Notes: a model not told the origin generated them from the letters alone. A DNA stretch of 64,000 nt from a virus (IMGVR_UViG_3300017971_000264:14056-78055); one strand, 5' to 3'; positions 1 through 54,086 are shown, numbered from the stretch's first letter. A program made the numbers and translations.

Positions 1-834
1 TACAACTGCCGGTCGACGACGGTTCCGAGGACGACGGTGATTTCCGTTCCAAGAGGAATGGTGGCGAGGGCAGCTCCGGTCATGCCAAGGCCGAGACCCA
101 CAGCACCGTACCGGCCCACTACCAGGCAAGGATTCGCCCCGTCTACCACCTCACGAGCTACCAGGCGGGATTTCCAGCGGCCACCAACATACGTACCCCG
201 AACACAGGTTACGAGGGGCAGAACCACGATAGCGGGACAGAACGACCCGGTGCTGATGGCAGCCCGCCTCGGGTACCCAGCAGAGATGGTCGGAGTCGAG
301 CCAACGATTGCCTACCGACGCGCCATCAAGACAGGTGGCTCAGAGGCAGCAGCGGCGAAATGGAAGCTCGACCCGAAGAAACTCGATGAGTTCGAAAAGA
401 AGGCAAGGTGGCAACTTTACAAGGGAAAACGACCTTCTCCAAACGTTGGTGGTAACGTTCCCGTAAACGTTGGGCCTAACGTTGGTGGTAACGTTGACCC
501 CAACGTTGCCGGAGACCTTTCCCAAACGTTGCAGAGACTACGATTGGGTGGTAAAGATTTAGCTGTGACCATGCGTATCAGCAAGGTCACCCCTGAGAGG
601 TTGAAGTCAGTAGTCCTTCATGAGGCGGAGTTTGGAGCGAGTAGGCTCTACTGGATAAGAGGACTAGACGAAGCATCGTCGTTGCGTATGAAATTCGACT
701 GGGCGAAGGTGAAGATGAGTGCGAATGCTCTCACAGCCCTTCGGAAGGCGAAAACGCAGGATGCGATACGCAAGGCGCTCAAAGACGTAGAAAAGGCAGG
801 ATTCTTTAAGAGGAAAAGAATATCGCCAAAATAA
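1..834 (+). CDS. 3' part of MuF/SPP1 gp7-like minor head protein with long basic C-terminal extension (5' partial)
   Basis: Frame 1 is open from base 1 and reads YNCRSTTVP, matching the NCRS motif that ends Phage_Mu_F domains; lies upstream of protease and capsid. Confidence 0.65.
   Translation, partial: YNCRSTTVPRTTVISVPRGMVARAAPVMPRPRPTAPYRPTTRQGFAPSTTSRATRRDFQRPPTYVPRTQVTRGRTTIAGQNDPVLMAARLGYPAEMVGVEPTIAYRRAIKTGGSEAAAAKWKLDPKKLDEFEKKARWQLYKGKRPSPNVGGNVPVNVGPNVGGNVDPNVAGDLSQTLQRLRLGGKDLAVTMRISKVTPERLKSVVLHEAEFGASRLYWIRGLDEASSLRMKFDWAKVKMSANALTALRKAKTQDAIRKALKDVEKAGFFKRKRISPK
442..530. repeat. 12-bp-period AACGTT tandem array (iteron-like)
   Basis: AACGTT at 442, 454, 466, 478, 490, 502; GACCTT at 514; AACGTT at 525. 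Confidence 0.9.
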
Positions 835-842
835 AGAGTTGT

Positions 843-872
843 TTGACAGCTCAAGCAGGGTTGAGGTAACGT
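843..872 (+). promoter_or_regulatory. Sigma70-type promoter for head genes
   Basis: TTGACA (843-848), 18 bp, TAACGT (867-872); CTCAA/TTGAG inverted repeat in the spacer. Confidence 0.55.
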
Positions 873-878
873 TAAGCC

Positions 879-1250
879 ATGACACACATTTTTGTGCCAC
901 ATCAGTTCAGAGCGGGCCGTGGAGAATTCTACAGGCTTGCCAATGACCTCGCGACAGACGAAGAACAGGCAGCGGCGGTTCTGAATGGGTTCATCAGAAA
1001 TCTGAAGATCTCGTTCATAGAAGATGCACGCAGAGAAGGAAAGAACCTAGAACAGATCAAGGGCAAGATTACAGAAGCAGAGAAGAGGCGCCGGGTCGAA
1101 ATCATCGCTATGTGGTTCCGCCGCTTGCGAGGAGACTACGGCTTCAGCGCCATCCGAAGCGTCGAGCTTTCTGGTAAAGCTCTGCGTGCAGAACTGGATG
1201 GAGAAACATTTACACCGCCCGTAGAGCGAAAGCTCTGGGCGCCGCATTAA
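879..1250 (+). CDS. Hypothetical protein
   Basis: 123-aa ORF filling the gap in a co-oriented gene run. Confidence 0.75.
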   Translation: MTHIFVPHQFRAGRGEFYRLANDLATDEEQAAAVLNGFIRNLKISFIEDARREGKNLEQIKGKITEAEKRRRVEIIAMWFRRLRGDYGFSAIRSVELSGKALRAELDGETFTPPVERKLWAPH

Positions 1251-1260
1251 GGAGACCATC

Positions 1261-2034
1261 ATGAACGAGCAACTGCTCAAAGTCGTGAAGCGTCAGTCTG
1301 AGCTTCTGGCCAAGATGGAGAGTGGAAAGCTTTCCAAGGCCGAGAAGAAAGAGCTGACCGCACTGCGCAAAGCAATCGATGCGTCGACGGGAGCGGGCGA
1401 GGACAGCGGCCCCACCACACGTATCACCACCATGAAACTGTCCGAGTTCCGTGAGCATACCGAGAAGGAGATCGCGGCCCTCGCCCAAAACCCCGATGAG
1501 ACTCGTGCCAAGATTTTGGCCAAGAACGTCGAATCGGTCAAAGCGTCTGGCAAGACCAACCCCGACGATGAGGTTGGTGTAGAGGTTCTGGTAGAGCAGT
1601 CGGCAGACGACCGCCTTGCCAACCTCGAACAGCTCGTGCGGGACCAGGCCAAGCGCATCGCCGAACTGGAGAAGGGTGAGGATGACTCAGACGACTCCGA
1701 CTCCGACGATGACGACGACTCCGACGAAGAGGACGAAGAGGACGGCGACGACGATTCCGATGATTCCGAAGAGGATGAAGGGGACGACGCCGAAAAGAAA
1801 AAGAAGGCGAAGAAGTCCAAGAAGTCCAAGAAGAAGAAGACCAAGAAGTCCGATTCCGACGACGATGACGACGATGACGAGGAAGACGAGAAGACCTGGG
1901 AAGGTTGGGGTGGTGACATGTCCCCACGTTCCAAGGGAGCCGTTGCCGACTTCCAGATGGCGAAAGCCAACTGCGAAGACAGGGACCTCGAAAAAGGCGT
2001 GAAAGCGTCCGTAACGCCCGGCGGCAAGGAGTAG
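1261..2034 (+). CDS. Coiled-coil acidic/Lys-rich protein, possible scaffold or internal head protein
   Basis: SD AAGGAG; coiled-coil N-terminus, D/E and K tracts; precedes the protease. Confidence 0.75.
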   Translation: MNEQLLKVVKRQSELLAKMESGKLSKAEKKELTALRKAIDASTGAGEDSGPTTRITTMKLSEFREHTEKEIAALAQNPDETRAKILAKNVESVKASGKTNPDDEVGVEVLVEQSADDRLANLEQLVRDQAKRIAELEKGEDDSDDSDSDDDDDSDEEDEEDGDDDSDDSEEDEGDDAEKKKKAKKSKKSKKKKTKKSDSDDDDDDDEEDEKTWEGWGGDMSPRSKGAVADFQMAKANCEDRDLEKGVKASVTPGGKE

Positions 2035-2038
2035 TCCC

Positions 2039-3037
2039 ATGAAAGGGATCGGCATCTTTAAAGGCAAAGTCGGGTCCGAGGATGTAGCATTCTTCGGATG
2101 CGATGATGCCACCTTGCTTGCAGAGATCCACACCGAGGCCAAGGCCATGGTGGGCATGGAGCTGCACAAGGAAGATCCGCCGGTCGGGACTACGGCTCGC
2201 CGTGTCGGCGAGATATTGGTCCACTCTGTCGATGACGATGAGACCTACCAGGTCCAGTCGGAGAAACCTGAGACAGGGAGACGACCAACTGGTTCGCCCG
2301 GAGGATGGGCGGTTCAGTCGCTGGTGTTCTCTAAGGACAAGTTCACGAAGGAACAGGCGAAAGCCTGGATCAAGGAACACAAGCAATTCGTCGATGCGGG
2401 AGTCGATGAGACCGACACGTCGTACAGGTTCCGCCAGTACGACCCCGGCTACTTCGGCAAATACCGCACGTTCGACTTGGCGGACGGCATCAAGGCCATT
2501 TATGGCCAGATTGCCAAAGAGAAGCGTGAAGACGCTGACGCTGAGAAGGACATCGCTGCTTCAATCGCCGATCACGACGCTGTGAAGGCATTGAACGAGC
2601 GCATTCTGAACAAGGGGCTGACGCTCTTTGAAGAAACCATCGAGAAGGCAGAAGAGAGTGAAGAGAGGTATATCCTCGGACTCGTTCTCGAACCCAACGA
2701 TGGAGAGGAAGGCGCTGACTACAAACCGGACACCCAGGGCGACATCTACTCCGCGAAGGCTGTGCGCGACTCTGCTCACGGCTTTATGGAGAAGTACGGC
2801 CAGATTGACCTCATGCATTCGTGGGATGCTCTGAGTGAGGGCGACGTGGCCATCCTGGAGTCCTACCTAGCCCCAGTCGAGTTCACCATCGGCAAAGGCA
2901 AGGATGCGTACAAGGTCAAAAAGGGAACGTGGCTCATGGCGCTGAGGGTAAAGAACGACGAGATCTGGAAGGCCATCAAGGACGGAAAGATCGGAGCGTT
3001 CTCCATCGGTGGCAAAGCACGCCGAACGGAGGTGTAA
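2039..3037 (+). CDS. XkdF-like (PBSX-type) prohead serine protease
   Basis: PDTQGDIYS...MHSW...ESYLAP...KKGTWLM...DEIWKAIKDGKIGAFSIGG signature. Confidence 0.88.
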   Translation: MKGIGIFKGKVGSEDVAFFGCDDATLLAEIHTEAKAMVGMELHKEDPPVGTTARRVGEILVHSVDDDETYQVQSEKPETGRRPTGSPGGWAVQSLVFSKDKFTKEQAKAWIKEHKQFVDAGVDETDTSYRFRQYDPGYFGKYRTFDLADGIKAIYGQIAKEKREDADAEKDIAASIADHDAVKALNERILNKGLTLFEETIEKAEESEERYILGLVLEPNDGEEGADYKPDTQGDIYSAKAVRDSAHGFMEKYGQIDLMHSWDALSEGDVAILESYLAPVEFTIGKGKDAYKVKKGTWLMALRVKNDEIWKAIKDGKIGAFSIGGKARRTEV

Positions 3038-12694: not shown

Positions 12695-13239
12695 GCAACA
12701 GACCACTTGTGTGCTTGACGGCCTCGGACACCTGGTACGGCAAGGCCATCAGGGGAGTTACTGGTAGCAACGTCAACCATGCGCTGATCGTTTACTACAG
12801 CGAGGCGCACGGAGGTTGGCAAGCTCTCCAGACGGACCAGCGTGGGCTGGTGGAGGTTCCGGCAGAAACCGTGAAGCATTCGTACATCGAGTGCTACGAG
12901 TTCCCGGATCTGGACCTCATGACAGCTCTTCCGAAGTGCAGAGATTTGGTCGGCGATTCCTACGACTGGGCAGGGATTGCAGGCTTCCTACTGAAGATCG
13001 CCTCATGGCGGCTCTTCGGTCGACGAATCGTAAATCCTCTCCACGAGAAGGGCGAGCTGTTTTGCAGTGAGTTCGCTGCGAGGTACTTGCAGCTCGTGGA
13101 CGGAATGTACGATTGGATGCTGAAGGTGAAGCCCTCGGGCATGGCACCTGGTGGCAAAAGCGAAGAACTCGGAGTCCCCTCGTTGCAGGAGCTTCTCCAA
13201 GTTCATGCTGGAGTCACCCGAAAGGACTGTCCTTTCTAA
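12691..13239 (+). CDS. Permuted papain-like amidase (YaeF/YiiX, peptidase C92-like)
   Basis: NHALI His precedes YDW and FCSEF Cys (permuted NlpC/P60 order). Confidence 0.8.
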   Translation: MSNRPLVCLTASDTWYGKAIRGVTGSNVNHALIVYYSEAHGGWQALQTDQRGLVEVPAETVKHSYIECYEFPDLDLMTALPKCRDLVGDSYDWAGIAGFLLKIASWRLFGRRIVNPLHEKGELFCSEFAARYLQLVDGMYDWMLKVKPSGMAPGGKSEELGVPSLQELLQVHAGVTRKDCPF

Positions 13240-13241
13240 GG

Positions 13242-13928
13242 ATGGGGAGCAGTGATGAAGAGAAAAGAGAGTCTGGGGTTGATGACCTGCTCAAGGAGTA
13301 CATCAAAGAGATCAGGCACGAGAGGTCGAAGAGAGGAAGTCCGGGAATGGCACAGGGATCACATAGCGCACCACCACCGACGGAGGGGCAAGGGTGGGGG
13401 TGGGTAAGAGATGAACTGAAAGAAAAAGCGTCGAAGGATTACGTAGAAGGGCAGATAAAAGCTTTGGAAGCACTAATTCAGGCCGTCAATAAAGAAGGAG
13501 AGGAGACAAAGAAGATCGCCCTCTCTGGAAGGAATAAAGCGATGGAGCCACATCAGTGTGCCAGAAACAAGACCGTGGACAACCTGGTCTTTGATTCGGA
13601 AAAAAGGAACACGCGAGTGAGAGGCATCATAGTCACAGTGATCAGCGCGATTGTCATCACGGCAGGAACGCTGACCGGATGGCTGTACTCTCACAAGGTC
13701 CTCCGGGACGATGTGGACGACTTGAAGACAGATGTCGCAGGGCTTCAGGGTGGCATGACCAAGGTGGTCAAGTCCCAGGAAGCCATGCAAGAAGCTTTGG
13801 AGCAGGACGCCGCTGCTGAGAAACTACAGCAGAAGCAACAGATGGAAGATTTCAGAGACGCACTGAAAGAGGTGCTGCTGGAGGTGAAGGAAGAGGACTC
13901 CAGCAACAGGCGACGACGAAGCAGATGA
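13242..13928 (+). CDS. Single-pass membrane coiled-coil protein
   Basis: One hydrophobic helix GIIVTVISAIVITAGTLTGWLY flanked by coiled coils. Confidence 0.7.
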   Translation: MGSSDEEKRESGVDDLLKEYIKEIRHERSKRGSPGMAQGSHSAPPPTEGQGWGWVRDELKEKASKDYVEGQIKALEALIQAVNKEGEETKKIALSGRNKAMEPHQCARNKTVDNLVFDSEKRNTRVRGIIVTVISAIVITAGTLTGWLYSHKVLRDDVDDLKTDVAGLQGGMTKVVKSQEAMQEALEQDAAAEKLQQKQQMEDFRDALKEVLLEVKEEDSSNRRRRSR

Positions 13929-14500
13929 GCCGCGAAGTAGAAATAGGCGCTGATGTCATCGACCAGTTCCCGGTTTGGTCAGGGAACGGCTACGACAAGA
14001 AGAGCGGCGAGACGGTGTTCGATGTCACCATCTGGAAGGATGGTGAGCGCAAGAATCTGTTCCCGTATCTGATAGAAGAGATAGATGCATCAGGGGAGTA
14101 CCGCTGGCAGTTCCGTCCGGATGACGTGGGTTTCTGGGTCTTCGAGGTGAAGATCCCCTACAACCAGGATGTGTGGGCCGGCGAGTACCGCGTCACAGCA
14201 GCGCGACTCAAGGTGAGAGCGTCGATGTCAGATGACAACACGACGACTCGAATCCTCTTGTGGGTGGAGGTCAACGGAAAGCGCAGAACAGACTGGACGA
14301 AGGTCGAGGCGATCATCCGAGACGAAGACGGCACGCAAGTTGTTGACCTCGGAGAGAACGTGACGCCCAATGCGGAGGGGGTCTACGAGTTCGAGACGCC
14401 CTCGACGAACCTTGACTTTCACCGTGCGTACACGGTGGACGTGAAGGCAACGAGAGGCACCACGGAGTGGGATGCCAATGTCGGCTTTGCGAGGATTTGA
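13925..14500 (+). CDS. Beta-rich (Ig-like) virion protein
   Basis: Overlaps the upstream stop; two beta-sandwich-like halves (GEYRWQF and GVYEFET). Confidence 0.7.
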   Translation: MSREVEIGADVIDQFPVWSGNGYDKKSGETVFDVTIWKDGERKNLFPYLIEEIDASGEYRWQFRPDDVGFWVFEVKIPYNQDVWAGEYRVTAARLKVRASMSDDNTTTRILLWVEVNGKRRTDWTKVEAIIRDEDGTQVVDLGENVTPNAEGVYEFETPSTNLDFHRAYTVDVKATRGTTEWDANVGFARI

Positions 14501-14772
14501 TGGCAATCATTTCGACAGAGTTCTGGCTCATCGGGGCGAAGTTCTCCGGTCAGCGAGATCCGAGGTATCGACCCCACATCGAGACCGCGGTGGATCTCAA
14601 GCCAGAGCCAACGTCGAGTACGGACTTGAAGCCGACCCCACACTCAGGAGTGGATGAGGCAACAACGACAGCAGAAATGAAGCCTATCCCGACGGCGGCA
14701 ACCAACTTGAAACCTGACCCGAGCATTGCCCGGAGTCTCAGGCCCACCCCGCTTGGGGCAGATGAGGAGTAG
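14500..14772 (+). CDS. Small Pro/Thr repeat protein
   Basis: ATG after GAGG; ~10-aa (L/M)(K/R)P.P repeats. Confidence 0.6.
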   Translation: MAIISTEFWLIGAKFSGQRDPRYRPHIETAVDLKPEPTSSTDLKPTPHSGVDEATTTAEMKPIPTAATNLKPDPSIARSLRPTPLGADEE

Positions 14773-14774
14773 AG

Positions 14775-15794
14775 ATGGCAACGATTAAAATTCGGTGGGC
14801 GGTGATAGAGCTGACCAACGTCATGTCTTTGTTCGATGTACAGCGAGTGTACCGTTCAACAGACGGAGTGGACGGAACCTACGTCGAAATCACCACGCCG
14901 GCGACGCGAGTTCCGCTCGTTGCAGGAGTCACAAACTACTTGTACGACGACACTACGGGAGACCCGGCGTACTACTACAAGATTGACTACTACAACTCAG
15001 TGACGACCAATGCGTCAGACAAGTCGGACCCTATCCGCGGCGGGTTGTCCGGGTACATAGATGTGCAGGACATCCGAGACGAGGGCTTCACGGAGACGGC
15101 TATAGCAGACCAGGATGTGATTCGCGGTATCGAGATGGCTACGGCGATGATCGATAGGGCAACCATGCAGTGGTTTGAACCGAGAACCAGGACGTTTAAG
15201 CTTGACCAGAAGCGGCAGTACGATGAGCTACACCTGGACATCCCGATCATCGCCATCACGAAGCTGGAGGTGAACGGTACCGAGGAGGACCTCACGAGCT
15301 TCGCTGTTTACAATAGGCACCTCACTCAGGGGCTGCTGAGTCCGGACGACCGTGCGCATCCGCACCTCAAGGTGAAGGAGCTGGACCCGACGGAGAGGTT
15401 GTACCCACTGTTTGGGCGTCCCTTCCTTCGTGGCCAGCAGATCACTACGGTGGAGGGTGTGTTCGGGTACACAGAGCTTGGCCCGAATGATCCCATCGGC
15501 GAGACGGAAGAGGGGAGCCAGATTCCTCTGGCCTACGGAAGTACGCCGAAGCTCATCCAGCACGCTGCCAAGTTGCTGACCATCCGGTACATGTGGCCCA
15601 TCGGAAGCGGCAAGGGCGATGACTTCGCCAACCGCGGTCGAATCAAGAAAGAGCAGACCGAGGACCAGATGTACGAGATGCAAGCCGTGTCCGGCTCCTC
15701 GATGGCCCCAGGTGCAAGCGGAGCCACCGGAGATCCGGAGGTTGATGCCATCCTGTCGTCATTCATGGGTCCGGCACGTTTCGGAGGCGTGTAA
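14775..15794 (+). CDS. Head-tail connector/adaptor with N-terminal extra domain
   Basis: YIDVQDIRDEG...IDRAT.QWFEPRT...FGYT...PKLIQHAA...TGDPEVDAIL. Confidence 0.75.
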   Translation: MATIKIRWAVIELTNVMSLFDVQRVYRSTDGVDGTYVEITTPATRVPLVAGVTNYLYDDTTGDPAYYYKIDYYNSVTTNASDKSDPIRGGLSGYIDVQDIRDEGFTETAIADQDVIRGIEMATAMIDRATMQWFEPRTRTFKLDQKRQYDELHLDIPIIAITKLEVNGTEEDLTSFAVYNRHLTQGLLSPDDRAHPHLKVKELDPTERLYPLFGRPFLRGQQITTVEGVFGYTELGPNDPIGETEEGSQIPLAYGSTPKLIQHAAKLLTIRYMWPIGSGKGDDFANRGRIKKEQTEDQMYEMQAVSGSSMAPGASGATGDPEVDAILSSFMGPARFGGV

Positions 15795-46851: not shown

Positions 46852-47156
46852 GAGACAAAGAAAGATCATACTTGTTGCAGCTCCAGACGCACATGGTGAG
46901 CTGGATTGAGAAGTTTGATGCGCTGATGAGCGCCGGGAAGGAGGGTGAGGCGATCTCGCAGGTGGATGCTATGCGAGAGCTGATCTCCGACTCCACGCGA
47001 ACCAAAGCGACTTTTTCAGCCGAGACTATCGATAAGCTAGAGCCGCTCTGGGACACCGTAGAGGCTCTTCGCGAGGCTGCAACAACACACAACGCTGACA
47101 AGGCGAACGAGGCTACACGGGCGGTACTGAAGGCCGTAGAGCCATTCTGGCCGTGA
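46848..47156 (+). CDS. Hypothetical helical protein
   Basis: GTGA overlap; SD AGGAGG. Confidence 0.7.
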   Translation: MRDKERSYLLQLQTHMVSWIEKFDALMSAGKEGEAISQVDAMRELISDSTRTKATFSAETIDKLEPLWDTVEALREAATTHNADKANEATRAVLKAVEPFWP

Positions 47157-47166
47157 AACACAAAGG

Positions 47167-47182
47167 AGTTTCACGTGAAACG
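47167..47182. promoter_or_regulatory. parS-like palindrome
   Basis: GTTTCACGTGAAAC (47168-47181); 14/16 match to TGTTTCACGTGAAACA; intergenic. Confidence 0.65.
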
Positions 47183-47199
47183 GGTGGGTGTTTCACGCA

Positions 47200-47657: not shown

Positions 47658-47671
47658 GGACCGTGAAACGT

Positions 47672-47698
47672 TTGACAAATGAACGTTTTTGGTAGAAT
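47672..47698 (+). promoter_or_regulatory. Promoter of the HTH gene
   Basis: TTGACA plus extended -10 TGnTAGAAT (15-bp spacer); overlapped by AACGTT at 47667 and 47682. Confidence 0.5.
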
Positions 47699-48147: not shown

Positions 48148-49374
48148 ATGGGACGTAGAAAGCGACTTGGATCGCACACCCCCCGTATGCTCGAAATCTT
48201 CGCAACATGCCGCAAAAAATATGAGATGGCCCACGTCAACGGACTGCGGAGAGCAGGTCGTGGGAAGCTCTCATTGAAGGAGCTTCTTGCGGAGCTGTTT
48301 CGAGCGAGAGACATCGCCATCGCGATGAGCATCGCGGATGTGCCGAGGGTGATGAACACAGCGCTGCACATGTGGAAAGCGCAGGTCACGCAGGAAGGGT
48401 TCAACCAAGAAGAGATCCGAGAGATCTGCGATGAAGCCAACAATATCGCGGCGTACTACCACGCGACACACCTGTCGGAAGATAGGAGGCTGTCGTTCAA
48501 GCAGGTTGAGGCGAGTAGACTCAGGAACACCAAATCGAAGAAGCTCGAACCGTTGGTCGGTCGCATCCTCGAAGGCAGAATCCTGAACCCCAAAACGCGA
48601 AGACAGAGCATGAGCAAGGTGGCGATTAGGTTGGACGGTGTGGTGATGCACGAATGTTCGACCGGAATGAAGCCGGCGCTGCTTGTGAGGTACTTCACTT
48701 CGAATCCGAACAGGCAAGAGGTTGAATCGGAACTGAGAGAGCGAATAGATTGGAGACCTCACCTCTGGCTTGCGATGCACCTGCTCAAGGTACCCATCGA
48801 CAGAATCGTGTTTGATGTCGTAAGGACAAAAGCACCAAGAGAGCCGAAGATGCTCAAGTGTACAAAGTGTAAGGGCAAGGGGTGCGAAGAGTGCGCAAAC
48901 ACAGGCGTGGGGCTGCCCAGCTCGGAATCAGTTGATACGACCCTTCGCGTGTGGTCTTCTGCGGTTTTGAAACATAAACACCTTGACACCGACAAAATAA
49001 AGGAGAAGTGTGGAAGGGTAATCGACCGTCTGAAGGTGAAAGGCGAGACCTTTGCCTACAGGTTCGAGACTCCAGTTTCCCCGGCTGGCGGAGTTCATTG
49101 GGAAAGGGAAGCTTGGGAGGTGTTCTCTGACATCAAGCGGCAGCGGAGGAGAGAAATCTGGCCGAAGAACATCGGTGCGTGCAAAGGAGTTCACGGTCTG
49201 TGTTCGTTCCTGCCTGCCTGTAGAGAGGAAGATTCTGAATCAATAGCCTGGTACGTGAAGGCGGACGACAAGTATCCAGGCGAATCAAACAGAAGGGAAG
49301 TCGCCGAAGAGGCGGCAAAACTAATCATGGAATGGAACATGAAGGAGGCTGAAAATGGGGGAAGCAGCGATTGA
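48148..49374 (+). CDS. PD-(D/E)XK Cas4/AddB-like protein with zinc-finger insert
   Basis: N-terminal TCRKKY plus C-terminal C...C..F...C; CTKCKGKGCEEC insert. Confidence 0.65.
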   Translation: MGRRKRLGSHTPRMLEIFATCRKKYEMAHVNGLRRAGRGKLSLKELLAELFRARDIAIAMSIADVPRVMNTALHMWKAQVTQEGFNQEEIREICDEANNIAAYYHATHLSEDRRLSFKQVEASRLRNTKSKKLEPLVGRILEGRILNPKTRRQSMSKVAIRLDGVVMHECSTGMKPALLVRYFTSNPNRQEVESELRERIDWRPHLWLAMHLLKVPIDRIVFDVVRTKAPREPKMLKCTKCKGKGCEECANTGVGLPSSESVDTTLRVWSSAVLKHKHLDTDKIKEKCGRVIDRLKVKGETFAYRFETPVSPAGGVHWEREAWEVFSDIKRQRRREIWPKNIGACKGVHGLCSFLPACREEDSESIAWYVKADDKYPGESNRREVAEEAAKLIMEWNMKEAENGGSSD

Positions 49375-50344
49375 TATGCTCCACGAACAGTGGGTAAAGC
49401 GTCGTCGTTCAGGTCTTGGTGCATCGGACATGCCGATCATCGTACTGGGTGAAGCGTATGAGCAGAAACCCATAGACGTGTATCTGTCCAAGATAGGGGC
49501 AGACATGGGGAACCAGGACCAGAAGATCTTCGAGCGCGGCCACGCACTCGAACCCCATGCACTCGAAGCGCTGAGAAAGAAATCAGGGCTTGAATTGGTA
49601 GTCCCGCAGACAGACGAAGAGAGGTACGGGAAGTTCTGGTTTGCTCATCCAGAGCAACCATGGATGTTTGCCAACCTCGACGCTTTCGTAGGAGACCCAA
49701 GAAAGGAGATCGCGGAAGCGAAGAGTGTCTGGGCGTACAAGTACCAGGAGATCAAAGAGCAGGGGTTGAGTGAAATCTACCAGATCCAGGGGCAGGCGCA
49801 GATGGCTGTCACGGGTGCCTCGGTCAACCACTTCTCGGTGTTCTCGGCTGAGTATTGGGACTGCCTGTACTTTCCGCTGGAGCGAGACGAGGAGATGATC
49901 GAGATGATCATCGCCAAGGGCAAAGAGTTCTGGGAGAACCATGTCCTTCGGCAAGAGCCGCCTCGCGATGAGAACTACGTGTACGAGGCGCCGGTGATGA
50001 AGATGAAGTCCGGCGAGTACAAAGACATGAGCGACAGCGAAGCCATGACCAAGGCGATGGAGCAGTACGTAAAGGCTCACTGGGCGCACAAGGATGCGGA
50101 AGAGGCAAAAGACGCAGCGAAGGTTGTGCTGGCTGGTCTCATGGAGATTTCCGAGGAGGAGGCTGTATCTGTCCACGGCAAGAAGATGACGTTCAGACCG
50201 TCGAAATCGACGTCGATGGACATGAAGTTGTTGGTGGCAACACATCCGGAAGTGAAGCCGGCGAAATTCAAGGTGGAGCGCTGGAGCAAACGTCCGTCCT
50301 TGACAGTGTACGTAGGGAAACGACCGGAAGCAGACAAAAAGTAA
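49355..50344 (+). CDS. YqaJ/lambda-exonuclease family nuclease
   Basis: W...RRSGLGASD, RGHALEP, ANLDA, EAKS, YQIQGQAQMAVTG. Confidence 0.92.
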   Translation: MGEAAIDMLHEQWVKRRRSGLGASDMPIIVLGEAYEQKPIDVYLSKIGADMGNQDQKIFERGHALEPHALEALRKKSGLELVVPQTDEERYGKFWFAHPEQPWMFANLDAFVGDPRKEIAEAKSVWAYKYQEIKEQGLSEIYQIQGQAQMAVTGASVNHFSVFSAEYWDCLYFPLERDEEMIEMIIAKGKEFWENHVLRQEPPRDENYVYEAPVMKMKSGEYKDMSDSEAMTKAMEQYVKAHWAHKDAEEAKDAAKVVLAGLMEISEEEAVSVHGKKMTFRPSKSTSMDMKLLVATHPEVKPAKFKVERWSKRPSLTVYVGKRPEADKK

Positions 50345-50380
50345 TTCTTGCTGGCAGGCAAGAAGGAGGGATTTAGAAAA

Positions 50381-51532
50381 ATGACAGACAAAGAAATCGC
50401 AATATACCAGAAGTCATACGAAGGAATTTCGGCAATGCTCAACCAGACGAAGGTAGAGCTTTCCAGGGCGTTACCCAAATATATAGCTCCGGACAAGATG
50501 ATCAGAGCAGCCTTGACCCTGTGGAGAGGGAAGCCAGAACTTTTGTCGGTGACACCAACATCGTTTGTGGGTGCTGTTCTGGAGTGTGCGCAGCTTGGAC
50601 TCATCCCGGATTCGATACTTGGACACGCGCACATTGTGGCGTTCTGGAACTGGAAGAAGAAAAGGAACGAGGCACAGTTAGTCCCTGGCTACAAGGGATA
50701 TGTCCACCTCGCTCGCGCAACAGGTGAAGTCAATGACTTTGACGCGCAGATAGTGTTTTCCAAAGACGAGTTCGAGTTTTCGAAAGGGTCTAAGCGCCAC
50801 CTTCATCACTCTTGGGATCACACGAAAAGGCATTCTGAAAGAGGAGAGAAGGTCGCCGTGTACACCTTTGTGGTGATGAAGAATGGCGAGGAGCATTTCG
50901 AGGTGATGAACTGGATGGACATTCTCGACCATAGAGAGAAGGTGTTGGCGAAGAAAAACATCTATATCACGACAAACGAGAATGGCGAAGAAGTGGCCAT
51001 AAAGAAGAAATATGATGGCTCCGAAAAAGAAACATCAAGCACGTGGGTTGATTATTTGGACTGGATGGCCAAGAAGACAGTAATTTTGCAAGCCTCGAAA
51101 CTTCTCCCTCTATCACCAACGTTTGAAAGGGCTGTAGCCTTGGATGAGGCAGCGACGTTTGGATATGATCAGAACTTGGGAGCCACAGTAGCTGAGATTC
51201 TCCCGGACATTGAAGAAGCAGTGGAATCACAGCATGAAGTGCAAGATATGGGCGCGACAGAGCAAACAGGCGAAGATCTCAAGGCGAAGCTACGGCAAGA
51301 GCAGGAGGAAAAGAAAAACGGTGGCGATGAAAAACCTCCGGAGGAAGAAACAGAAGGGCCGGAAGAGGAGACCGAGCAAGAGGAGACCAAGGAAGAAGAA
51401 CGGGACTCGAACGGGATGAGCGCAGAGGATAGGAAAGCCCTCGAAGCAGCACGAGAGCGTGCGAAGAAGAAGAACGGCAATGGAGGGAAAAAGAAGGGAG
51501 AGCAGAAAGAGCTTCTGCCATCGGAGGAATAG
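50381..51532 (+). CDS. recT: RecT single-strand annealing protein
   Basis: CAQLGLIPD..LGHAHIV, GYKG, MAKKTV, LPLS. Confidence 0.92.
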   Translation: MTDKEIAIYQKSYEGISAMLNQTKVELSRALPKYIAPDKMIRAALTLWRGKPELLSVTPTSFVGAVLECAQLGLIPDSILGHAHIVAFWNWKKKRNEAQLVPGYKGYVHLARATGEVNDFDAQIVFSKDEFEFSKGSKRHLHHSWDHTKRHSERGEKVAVYTFVVMKNGEEHFEVMNWMDILDHREKVLAKKNIYITTNENGEEVAIKKKYDGSEKETSSTWVDYLDWMAKKTVILQASKLLPLSPTFERAVALDEAATFGYDQNLGATVAEILPDIEEAVESQHEVQDMGATEQTGEDLKAKLRQEQEEKKNGGDEKPPEEETEGPEEETEQEETKEEERDSNGMSAEDRKALEAARERAKKKNGNGGKKKGEQKELLPSEE

Positions 51533-51535
51533 ACG

Positions 51536-52648
51536 ATGGGAGGGACGCAGAAGAAGAGAAAGTATCGCAAGACTGAATGCTACATGTGGAGCGACAATCG
51601 CTTTCTCTCCATGTCGGATGATGCCAGACAGATTTGGTTATATCTGCTGGGCAGCCACAGAACATCCGATGCTCCGGGGCTGGTCGTTACATCGGTGCTG
51701 ACCATGGCGGACGATTTGAAGTGGTATGAACGCGATGGAATCAAAAGTTTGGAGAGAATCGAGAACGCCATCCAGGAGATACGAAGGCGGAAGTGGCTGG
51801 AGGTTGACTCAGAGGCGAAGGTGATGCTCGTGACCAACTCGGTGAAGCACAATCTTCCGTCTTCGCCGAATGTTGTTACCCACTGGCATCGGTCGTTCAT
51901 GGAGGTTCCGGACACTCCCCTCAAGTCGAGTTGGTTGAGATACGCGAGAAAAGCGTTGGTGGAAGAACTCGGAGAGGACTGCGGAAGGGTGGCGAAGTTC
52001 GATGAGGTACTATACGGGCCGCACTTCAAAGAGTCCGAAATTGCTCAGGAAACGCTGCCACAAATAGACAGAGGAAACGTTGAGGGTAACGTTGGTACCA
52101 ATGTTGGGGGTAACGTTGGTACCAACGTTGGTGGGAACCTTGACCTAAACCTTGGCGCCAACATTGCCGAAACCAAGAACAGTAACAATAGCAAGATCAG
52201 TAACAAGATCAGTAACAAGGACAGTAACAAGAACAATACAAGAGAAGAGGGGCCTGCCAAGGCAAGCCCCTCCGCTACCAAGGAGCGTCTCTCTAAGCTC
52301 AATAAAAAACAGAGAGCAGCGTATGACGCGCTGAAGGGACAGAAATTCACCTATGCGAGAAGCGAGGAACCGGTGACGCTGGGAGAAATAGACATCGACA
52401 TCATAGCCCTTGGCGAGATTCTCGGTGGCAGCGCATACCCAGGGATTGATCCAGTCATAGAAATAGGCAGAGCGGCGAACTGGACTCTTACGAACAAGAG
52501 CAAGGCGAAAGTGATGCTGGATCGTTTCTTGGTGAATTGGTTCAACAGGCGTCAGGAGGGTGGGGGAACAAGGGGGTATGTTGCAGATGACGACGATGCA
52601 GGCGAATCGGTGTACGATCTGAAGAAGAAGGTGCAAGATGCAAAATAG
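51536..52648 (+). CDS. Phage replication initiator (O-like)
   Basis: MWSD.RFLSMS...WLYLL N-terminus; internal repeats; FLVNWFNR; upstream of DnaB. Confidence 0.75.
   Translation: MGGTQKKRKYRKTECYMWSDNRFLSMSDDARQIWLYLLGSHRTSDAPGLVVTSVLTMADDLKWYERDGIKSLERIENAIQEIRRRKWLEVDSEAKVMLVTNSVKHNLPSSPNVVTHWHRSFMEVPDTPLKSSWLRYARKALVEELGEDCGRVAKFDEVLYGPHFKESEIAQETLPQIDRGNVEGNVGTNVGGNVGTNVGGNLDLNLGANIAETKNSNNSKISNKISNKDSNKNNTREEGPAKASPSATKERLSKLNKKQRAAYDALKGQKFTYARSEEPVTLGEIDIDIIALGEILGGSAYPGIDPVIEIGRAANWTLTNKSKAKVMLDRFLVNWFNRRQEGGGTRGYVADDDDAGESVYDLKKKVQDAK
52076..52240. repeat. Putative replication origin: iteron array plus A-rich repeats
   Basis: 8 units at 12-bp period (AACGTT/AATGTT/AACCTT/AACATT) followed by AGTAACAAG repeats. 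Confidence 0.75.
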
Positions 52649-54086
52649 AGGCGCACCGCAAAGCGAATGGCACGGAGGGAGAATTCCCCCTTACAGTCGT
52701 ACAGCAGAGCAGGCAGTTCTCGGAGCTATCCTTCTGAACAACAGAGCGTTGAGAGTGGTCAAGAATGTCGTCACGGTGGATTCGTTCTACGTTGAGGCGA
52801 ATCGCAGGATTTTCCAGGCGATGGATGACCTCGATATGAAAGGAGACCCCATTGACCACGTGACCCTTGGAGAGGAACTTTCCAGCGCAGGCGATCTGCA
52901 AAAGGTCGGCGGCATCATGGCCCTCGACAAGCTCACCGATGCGGTGGCAACGGTTGCCAATGTCGACTACTACGCGAAGATCATCAGGGAAAAGGAAATC
53001 GTTCGAAAGATGATCTACGCAGCTCAGCAGATTGTAGCCGATGGCTTCAGCGATTTGAGCGACGTGGACACGTTCATGAATGAGTCACGAGCTTCGATAC
53101 TCGCGGCAACCGCAGAGAGGACAGCGGGACTATCGGCCATTCGTATCGATGCGGACATCGACGAAGTGGTCGAGGAAGTGATTGAAGGACGTGAGCCGGA
53201 AGGTCTTGTGAAGACAGGAATCGGAGATCTCGATGATGTGACAGGCGGGCTATACCCAGGACTGATGCATGTGATTGCGGGTAGGCCGGGAATGGGTAAG
53301 AGCGCAATGGCGCTGAACATTTGCCTGAACACCGCGTTGTCTCAGAAGAAGTCTTTGTACGTATCCTTAGAGGATGTTCGAAAGTTCCTTTCGCTACGAA
53401 CACTGGCGAGATTTGCAGATATGGATTTGCAGAACCTCGTGCTGAGAAGAACAAAGCCGGACGACAGATATGCCCTGGAGGGTGCAGCTCAGAAAATAAA
53501 GGGACTACCCTTCTGGGTCGCTGACTTTGCAGGCATGACGGCAGATCGCGTCAAGCAGGTGATCACGGCTCACATGGATCTTCACGGCTTGGACTGTGTG
53601 GCGATTGACCACTTGCAGCATGTCCATGGAGAAGGTGACAGGCTGGAAGTGGTGAGCAAGGCGGCGAAGCTGTTTGCTGATATGGCAAAGGAGCTGAACC
53701 TTCCCGTGATTGCCGTTTCTCAGTTGAACCGCGGTGTTGAAAGCCGTCCGGATAAGCGTCCGAGGATGTCGGATCTGAAGGAAACAGGCGAGATTGAACA
53801 GGTGGCGAGGGCAGTGTGGCTCATGTACAGGCCGTCGTATTACAAGCCGGAACACGACGAGCATGAGTTGGAGCTGAACGTTGGGAAGGCCAATCATGGA
53901 AAGACCGGTCGCGTCAAGCTTTGGTGCGACCTGAGTAGGATGTTCATCACAGATGAGCAGACCGGAGGACAGGTTGAAGAGGTCCGCAGGAATCCACAGA
54001 TGCGGATTGATTCTGAGATGACGGGAGGAGATGCTCCCGAACAACGAGGAGATGCAGAAGATGACGACGAATTTGGAGCCTGGTAA
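52638..54086 (+). CDS. dnaB: Replicative DNA helicase
   Basis: AEQAVLGAIL, GRPGMGKS, IDHLQ, SQLNR, RP.MSDLKETGEIEQ. Confidence 0.96.
   Translation: MQNRGAPQSEWHGGRIPPYSRTAEQAVLGAILLNNRALRVVKNVVTVDSFYVEANRRIFQAMDDLDMKGDPIDHVTLGEELSSAGDLQKVGGIMALDKLTDAVATVANVDYYAKIIREKEIVRKMIYAAQQIVADGFSDLSDVDTFMNESRASILAATAERTAGLSAIRIDADIDEVVEEVIEGREPEGLVKTGIGDLDDVTGGLYPGLMHVIAGRPGMGKSAMALNICLNTALSQKKSLYVSLEDVRKFLSLRTLARFADMDLQNLVLRRTKPDDRYALEGAAQKIKGLPFWVADFAGMTADRVKQVITAHMDLHGLDCVAIDHLQHVHGEGDRLEVVSKAAKLFADMAKELNLPVIAVSQLNRGVESRPDKRPRMSDLKETGEIEQVARAVWLMYRPSYYKPEHDEHELELNVGKANHGKTGRVKLWCDLSRMFITDEQTGGQVEEVRRNPQMRIDSEMTGGDAPEQRGDAEDDDEFGAW

Follow-up and report, generated by a model that had tools for sequence, protein, structure and literature searches.

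In phage SPP1, the replisome organizer gp38 binds with similar affinity to repeats within gene 38 (oriL) and to repeats in the late region of the genome (oriR) (PMC5737612, PMC6316719); for oriL, oriR and gp38, the primary source is Missich et al. 1997, followed here as it is represented in PMC5737612. In the model developed for this phage, gp38 bound to oriR stalls the replication fork, which leads to a recombination-dependent switch from theta to sigma replication and to the synthesis of concatemers (PMC5737612, PMC6316719, PMC3485210); oriR has also been described as a second origin with the same layout of repeats (PMC6316719). That oriR acts as a fork barrier and triggers this switch has so far been proposed only as a model. 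Inspection of the SPP1 record placed the oriR repeats, together with an A-rich tract, in the 336-bp gap that immediately follows the MuF-family gene 7; gene 38 contains the oriR words as well, repeated every 11 bp.

In phage lambda, ori lies within gene O, where the iterons are located between the regions that encode an N-terminal domain binding DNA and a C-terminal domain recruiting the helicase, and are followed by an AT-rich tract. The R6K initiator pi is bound at the gamma iteron array and is thought to loop from there to the distant alpha and beta origins, which contain few or no iterons. P1 incA and F incC are clusters of initiator sites without an unwinding element that are separate from the origin and can titrate or handcuff the initiator. 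Similarly, datA of Escherichia coli is an initiator-titrating locus apart from the origin (PMC5010248).

Here we analyze 64,000 nucleotides of phage DNA (hereinafter, the window) that correspond to bases 14056-78055 of a linear IMG/VR virus record of 78,055 bp, with an estimated completeness of 81%. Nearly all genes of this phage are on the plus strand; the genes for the large terminase and the portal, as well as the start of the gene for a MuF-family minor head protein, lie upstream of the window. DNA identical to that of this phage was found in marine sediment and seawater metagenomes, and proteins identical to those of this phage are also encoded on a 101-kb contig; comparison of window positions 1-3000 with known phages using BLASTN yielded a low-complexity match only. 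An earlier note on this DNA described an array of AACGTT palindromes within the MuF gene and a second such array within the initiator gene, and all the coordinates, as well as the identities of the two host genes, were confirmed. The principal features are as follows.

1-834, plus strand: 3' portion of the gene for the MuF-family minor head protein (complete gene G000, 12733-14889 in record numbering, 718 aa; Phage_Mu_F, phrog_115)
442-507, no strand assigned: array A, in which six perfect AACGTT cores recur exactly every 12 bp and are separated by variable spacers of 6 bp, the in-frame translation being N-V-x-x
49355-50344 and 50348-51532, plus strand: genes for a RecE/YqaJ-like exonuclease and a RecT-like annealing protein, directly upstream of the initiator gene
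51536-52648, plus strand: replisome-organizer (initiator) gene, 370 aa, with an N-terminal domain of the phrog_25711/phrog_1701 type, an iteron linker and a C-terminal domain
52076-52171, no strand assigned: array B, eight in-phase units (four AACGTT, one AATGTT, two AACCTT and one AACATT) within the part of the initiator gene that encodes the linker
52178-52243, plus strand: tract of A-rich 12-bp repeats of the (AACAGK)n type with a GC content of 35%, which may serve as the DNA-unwinding element of the origin and is present nowhere else in the window
52638-54086, plus strand: gene for a DnaB-like replicative helicase (phrog_19, E = 1e-89), directly downstream of the initiator gene

In array A, the AACGTT cores start at positions 442, 454, 466, 478, 490 and 502, and are followed by GACCTT at 514 and another AACGTT at 525. 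In array B, at a distance of 51.6 kb, AACGTT is found at 52076, 52088, 52112 and 52124, and degenerate cores continue in phase up to 52171. The window contains 26 copies of AACGTT (13 +/- 3.7 expected), of which 11 belong to the two arrays, the remainder being at chance level. A phase-aware scan of the whole 78-kb record recovered arrays A and B, with scores of 36/36 and 34/36, as the only arrays, whereas the next best place scored 21 and the maxima of 20 shuffles ranged from 19 to 22. Thus, the count and the 12-bp periodicity bear out the claim of the earlier note that the same motif and period recur in these two genes, although, given that the record is 81% complete, further arrays may exist. 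The array sequence was detected in three holders among DNA sequencing runs, identical in all of them and with no array length variants; two of the three may be the source, and no RNA holder was listed in this check.

The location of a lambda-type origin inside the initiator gene is supported for the 52-kb array. The initiator matches phrog_1701 (DnaD-like helicase loader; E = 7e-12) and phrog_25711 but not the O-like PHROGs or the Pfam family Phage_rep_org_N; Pfam scans of the initiator and of the C-terminal part of the MuF protein identified no family, and a PDB profile search with the initiator alignment found nothing. The proteins of three viral contigs (L062, L008 and L038) and an additional protein, P0002, share both phrog_1701 and phrog_25711 with this initiator, and their N-terminal domains align with its N-terminal domain; for L062, L008 and L038, the C-terminal domains align as well. 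In all four genes, that is, L062, L008, L038 and the gene of this phage, the region for the N-terminal domain is followed by an AACGTT array with a 12-bp period and then by a hexamer tract, which consists of AACAGG in L062 and L008, AACAGT in L038, and AACAGT/AACAAG in this phage. The arrays and tracts are translated as ER.. and QEQE in L062 and L008 but as NV.. and NS or NK in this phage and L038. The DNA words are kept whereas the peptides change, so it is the DNA that is conserved, which is the signature of a cis-acting element; the retention of the 12-bp AACGTT array in two reading frames in homologous initiators also upholds the argument of the earlier note for selection at the DNA level. 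The tract at 52178-52243 is the most AT-rich and the most A-rich stretch of the initiator gene (GC 35% at 52180-52239) and, by analogy, would correspond to the AACAAT-type unwinding element of SPP1. Judging by this family-wide arrangement, array B is a real, family-typical origin. What emerges for the poorly known phrog_25711/phrog_1701 family is an origin architecture that is defined at the DNA level, namely, AACGTT at 12 bp followed by (AACAGK)n, across reading frames.

The low-complexity QEQEQE and NSNSNS peptides of the phrog_25711/phrog_1701 initiators (L062:4146-4330, L008, L038) are mere consequences of this DNA element. A search of viral contigs found no close relatives of the initiator, and P0002 was the only one among 5.8 billion proteins. 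The sole match among genome contigs is a distant relative of the N-terminal domain (30% identity) encoded in a Candidatus Binatia metagenome-assembled genome (L120:9980-11275), on a contig with no AACGTT array. This protein contains an HNH-like Cys-rich insert and a QDQEQDQE tract encoded by AACAGGATCAGG repeats, which are followed by an IstB/DnaC-like ATPase.

When viral contigs were screened for three AACGTT spaced at 12 bp, more than 109 loci were recovered, one large group of which belongs to Streptococcus pneumoniae prophages. Among the 35 array-hosting open reading frames (ORFs) that were scanned against profiles, 13 belong to Pfam Phage_rep_org_N and nine more match PHROGs of replication initiators or organizers (one of these nine, L037, also has a weak Phage_rep_org_N match), so that at least 22 of the 35 ORFs from other viral contigs encode replication initiators or replisome organizers. 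The AACGTT core and the 12-bp period thereby occur in two organizer families that are unrelated to each other. In the Phage_rep_org_N genes of pneumococcal prophages, AACGTTAC units are repeated at a 12-bp period (L021, L054, L066, L084, L109 and others), and AACGTTAC-type arrays are also present in the organizer genes of Streptococcus phages IPP51, IPP43 and phiARI0131-2. A different kind of host is represented by long tail-fiber-like ORFs in which AACGTTACAGGA-type units encode (NVTG)n peptide repeats (L018, L024, L027, L068, L071, L075 and others); given such repeats, the DNA pattern alone is no proof of an iteron array.

Of the systems outlined above, oriL/oriR of SPP1 is the closest known case and a direct precedent for two sites of one organizer. 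In both phages, origin repeats and an A-rich tract are located inside the organizer gene; the order of the module is exonuclease, RecT, organizer, DnaB (the exonuclease and RecT being encoded by genes 34.1 and 35 in SPP1); the repeats recur in the late region, at a MuF-family head gene; and their spacing is approximately one helical turn, 11 bp in SPP1 and 12 bp in this phage. There are, however, several differences. The distal array in this phage is coding, in frame within the 718-aa MuF protein, whereas oriR of SPP1 lies in an intergenic moron segment; array A consists of iterons only, whereas oriR has an AT-rich element of its own; the core is the palindromic AACGTT, in contrast to the asymmetric AAAAGACAC boxes of SPP1; and the two sites are 51.6 kb apart, compared to 12-13 kb on the SPP1 circle. 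Although gp38 and the initiator of this phage both match phrog_1701, they match different parts of the profile and show no BLASTP similarity; family membership at the PHROG level is all that they share. A second site for the organizer is known from SPP1 but is not universal; what sets this phage apart is a distal site that is coding and consists of iterons only.

The remaining systems resemble individual parts of this arrangement. The layout of array B, with linker iterons followed by an AT-rich tract, is that of lambda O and of the Phage_rep_org_N origins of Firmicutes phages, although in lambda the iterons are four in number and 19 bp long, and a distal array is lacking. Array A, in turn, is comparable to incA, incC and datA in being a cluster of sites, presumably bound by the initiator, without an unwinding element and apart from the origin. 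However, incA and incC are non-coding loci adjacent to the rep gene, no more than ~1 kb away, and all three loci belong to stably maintained replicons, whereas neither a ParB_N domain nor a tyrosine integrase was found in the 78-kb record of this phage (81% complete). R6K shares with this phage an initiator on a main array together with distant sites, but the latter are kilobases rather than 50 kb away and do fire, and R6K is a plasmid with non-coding sites.

To characterize array A, the following additional features of the MuF gene and the region downstream of it have to be considered.

431-448, plus strand: left arm of a direct repeat, GACCTT-NN-CCAAACGTTG, overlapping the first core of array A
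442-513, plus strand: in-frame insertion of ~69 bp or 23 codons (MuF aa ~589-612), missing in both MuF homologs, with the gap placed to within one codon
514-531, plus strand: right arm of the direct repeat, which includes GACCTT, a degenerate core, at 514 and an AACGTT that is both off phase and out of frame at 525
843-881, plus strand: putative promoter for a leaderless mRNA of the head-region gene that follows (TTGACA at 843-848, 18 nt, TAACGT at 867-872, 6 nt, ATG at 879)

The Phage_Mu_F domain occupies aa 273-359 of the MuF protein, and array A encodes aa ~589-612. An exhaustive HMMER search with the C-terminal part of the protein identified a single homolog, P0004, which is 48% identical to the MuF protein over 688 aa; a 5.7-kb contig, L118, encodes a relative that is 85% identical to P0004, and these two full-length homologs show ~48-51% identity to the MuF protein of this phage. 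Other searches had a narrower yield: a single-protein search for close relatives found none in viral or metagenome contigs, a search with the three-protein alignment returned the 5.7-kb L118 contig only and nothing in genome contigs, and a word-based search with the C-terminal part retrieved the protein itself only. In P0004 and L118 alike, both flanks of array A align well, with a single clean 23-residue gap at the NV repeat, and L118 contains no AACGTT over its 5.7 kb. On these alignments, array A is a lineage-specific insertion, and the peptide that it encodes is dispensable because it is missing from both homologs. The alternative considered in the earlier note, namely, that homologs retain an NVGG peptide with free choice of synonymous codons, does not hold, given that the MuF homologs are devoid of the segment.

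An AlphaFold model of a 277-aa piece of the MuF protein, built with a three-sequence alignment, has pLDDT values below 50 for residues 1-187 and of 60-90 for residues 188-277. Array A is thus predicted to encode a disordered linker that precedes a folded C-terminal domain of ~90 aa. This domain (window 562-831, aa ~629-718) is confidently modeled as a small alpha/beta domain (pLDDT 60-90) and is conserved in P0004 and L118; a fold search with the model gave a best Z of 5.4 and no meaningful match.

The codons of array A are in accord with constraint on the DNA. All 12 core codons are AAC or GTT, and the Gly, Pro and Val codons of the spacers vary; by comparison, the share of GTT among Val codons is only 20.5%, and of the 58 NV dipeptides located elsewhere, only 7 are encoded by AACGTT. 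By our own count, synonymous deviations affect none of the 12 core codons vs three of the nine spacer codons (p ~0.06), a result that is marginal when taken alone because the repeat units are not independent. The statement in the earlier note that every Val codon of the arrays is GTT holds for all 11 core Val codons but not for the spacer Val at 463-465, which is GTA; the argument for selection at the DNA level is only sharpened by this exception. The unit at 525, which the note singles out as being out of frame, belongs to the right arm of the GACCTT-NN-CCAAACGTTG direct repeat. Together, these observations support the view that array A is the same DNA element as array B and is selected as DNA rather than as peptide.

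With its six perfect cores, array A equals or exceeds most origins of the phrog_25711/phrog_1701 family, but it has no tract that could be opened, so it is most likely a binding-only site. Specifically, from the sequence comparisons and the analogies outlined above, we consider it probable, albeit by no means certain, that array A is a site to which the replisome organizer binds without firing and that serves as a sink, a handcuffing partner, or a roadblock to forks or transcription. Binding of the organizer to AACGTT and to array A is inferred from the identity of the motif and its conservation in the family; the ensuing effect, and any part of array A in copy control, transcription coupling or packaging as envisaged in the earlier note, are likewise putative. 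In the proposed mechanism, the N-terminal domain of the organizer would bind the palindromic AACGTT cores, and at each of the two arrays a filament would form on the sites, which are spaced at 12 bp. At array B, the adjoining A-rich (AACAGK)n tract would be opened and the DnaB helicase loaded, so that this site would function as the origin. Array A could act as a sink or handcuffing partner that limits initiation, in the manner of P1 incA or E. coli datA; as a tightly bound roadblock that stalls forks, as in the model for SPP1 oriR, and so promotes an exonuclease/RecT-dependent switch to concatemers; or as a roadblock to transcription reading into the head genes.

It is further possible, although we hold this elaboration to be rather doubtful, that array A is a timing device located half a genome away from the origin, where the bound initiator would halt forks or late transcription and thereby tie the completion of theta replication to the formation of concatemers and the expression of head genes. 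This reading supposes that an array bound by the initiator with high affinity resides in a structural gene and is harmlessly translated as a disordered NVxx linker. Should it apply to other phages as well, cis-acting replication sites could be concealed in structural genes as in-frame peptide repeats. What looks like a low-complexity peptide repeat of a structural protein can reflect a cis-acting element in the DNA, a point of relevance to the annotation of phage genomes and to their synonymous recoding. This phage is a natural separation-of-function variant, with distal iterons that lack an unwinding element and with close homologs of the host gene that lack the array, which makes the binding-only hypothesis directly testable.

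The principal competing explanation is that a piece of an AACGTT-type origin array, derived from this phage itself or from a co-infecting relative, was inserted into a tolerant linker of the MuF protein by illegitimate or RecT-mediated recombination and, although possibly bound by the initiator, fulfills no function under selection. The absence of the segment from both MuF homologs, its position in a linker that is predicted to be disordered, and the exonuclease/RecT pair encoded by this phage are all compatible with such an origin. So is the direct repeat: its arms at 431-448 and 514-531, which contain AACGTT and are alike in 16 of 18 bases, bracket array A as expected from short-homology recombination or slippage, and the GACCTT-NN-CCAAACGTTG pattern has two exact matches, with 0.4 expected at no more than three mismatches. 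Furthermore, when 15 other phage records whose initiator genes contain AACGTT arrays were searched with a two-unit, one-mismatch pattern, a distal array was found in none of them; seven of these records, including the family member L038, are at least 93% complete, and in some of the 15, a second cluster is present 170-330 bp away. Hence a distal site is not a general need of such origins. However, all six cores of array A are perfect whereas the spacers differ in four of the six units, and array B, at the origin itself, has decayed to four perfect cores out of eight; perfect cores could nevertheless reflect a young insertion instead of selection. The spacers of the two arrays show no significant collinear similarity (p = 0.52), which gives no indication of a recent direct copy of array B, and a strong sink for the initiator in an essential late gene seems unlikely to be neutral. 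On balance, insertion of a fragment with no selected role is less likely than the binding-only reading but is a serious rival to it.

Still less probable is a second origin that fires at array A in the manner of a true oriR, with the initiator assembling on the array and replication beginning nearby. The precedent is oriR of SPP1, described as a second origin with the same layout of repeats (PMC6316719), and the nearest AT-rich DNA, the intergenic stretch 800-859 with a GC content of 37%, lies ~290 bp downstream of array A. However, array A is not adjoined by an (AACAGK)n tract, which follows the iterons in all four family origins and, within the window, is found only next to array B; nor is there an AT-rich flank, the adjoining 60-bp windows having 45-55% GC. 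The missing unwinding tract disfavors the second-origin option that the earlier note had put forward. The single strands of the arrays can form hairpins, with z about -3.2 for both arrays, but this potential follows trivially from the palindromic cores; we rejected hairpin folding as evidence and set these scores aside because tandem palindromes inevitably fold.

We regard as very unlikely the possibility that array A is a site for a different protein, such as the terminase (a pac-like hexamer array), a late regulator, or a methylase or restriction enzyme, in which case the motif shared with the initiator gene would mark sites of that protein instead of the organizer. Phased hexamer arrays are known in pac sites such as P1 pac, array A is located in the packaging and head gene block, and a palindrome such as AACGTT is typical of restriction-modification sites. 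Yet pac sites are normally located in or beside the small terminase gene, which in this phage is ~7 kb upstream of array A, and AACGTT outside the arrays occurs at chance frequency, being neither avoided nor enriched. The motif and the period are conserved in the initiator genes of two unrelated organizer families, which points to the initiator itself. Finally, the idea that array A is a flexible or structural NVxx linker that arose independently in two proteins is highly improbable and already largely refuted: it can appeal to the N-V-x-x frame shared by both arrays and to the NVTG-type repeats that the same DNA pattern encodes in tail-fiber-like ORFs of many viral contigs, but the peptide is missing entirely from the MuF homologs, the homologous initiators hold the DNA motif in another frame (ER..), the 12 core codons show no synonymous change despite a rare Val codon, the region is predicted to be disordered, and the DNA word is also found in an out-of-frame unit and in a lone non-coding unit.

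That lone unit brings into focus the promoter-like sequence downstream of array A. The GGTAACGTT 9-mer occurs five times (0.18 expected), four times within the arrays and a fifth time at 865-873, where the -10-like box of the 843-881 promoter sits within it. A sigma-70 consensus scan gave no call for the head-operon promoter that the earlier note placed here (843-872), but its geometry (TTGACA, 17-18 nt, TAnnnT, 6 nt, ATG) is conserved at the matching place in L118 (2466-2504: TTGACA, 17 nt, TACGGT, 6 nt, ATG), and the two sites look like a conserved promoter for a leaderless mRNA. Elsewhere in the window, at 47667-47698, the TTGACA of a promoter-like site whose -10 element is extended (TGgTAGAAT) lies between two AACGTT with a spacing of 15 bp; this pair may have arisen by chance because AACGTT outside the arrays occurs at the expected frequency. 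At 47152-47197, just upstream of an AT-rich promoter region, there is a parS-like perfect palindrome, GTTTCACGTGAAAC, with flanking half-sites, and the first AACGTT of 47667-47698 overlaps a parS half-site.
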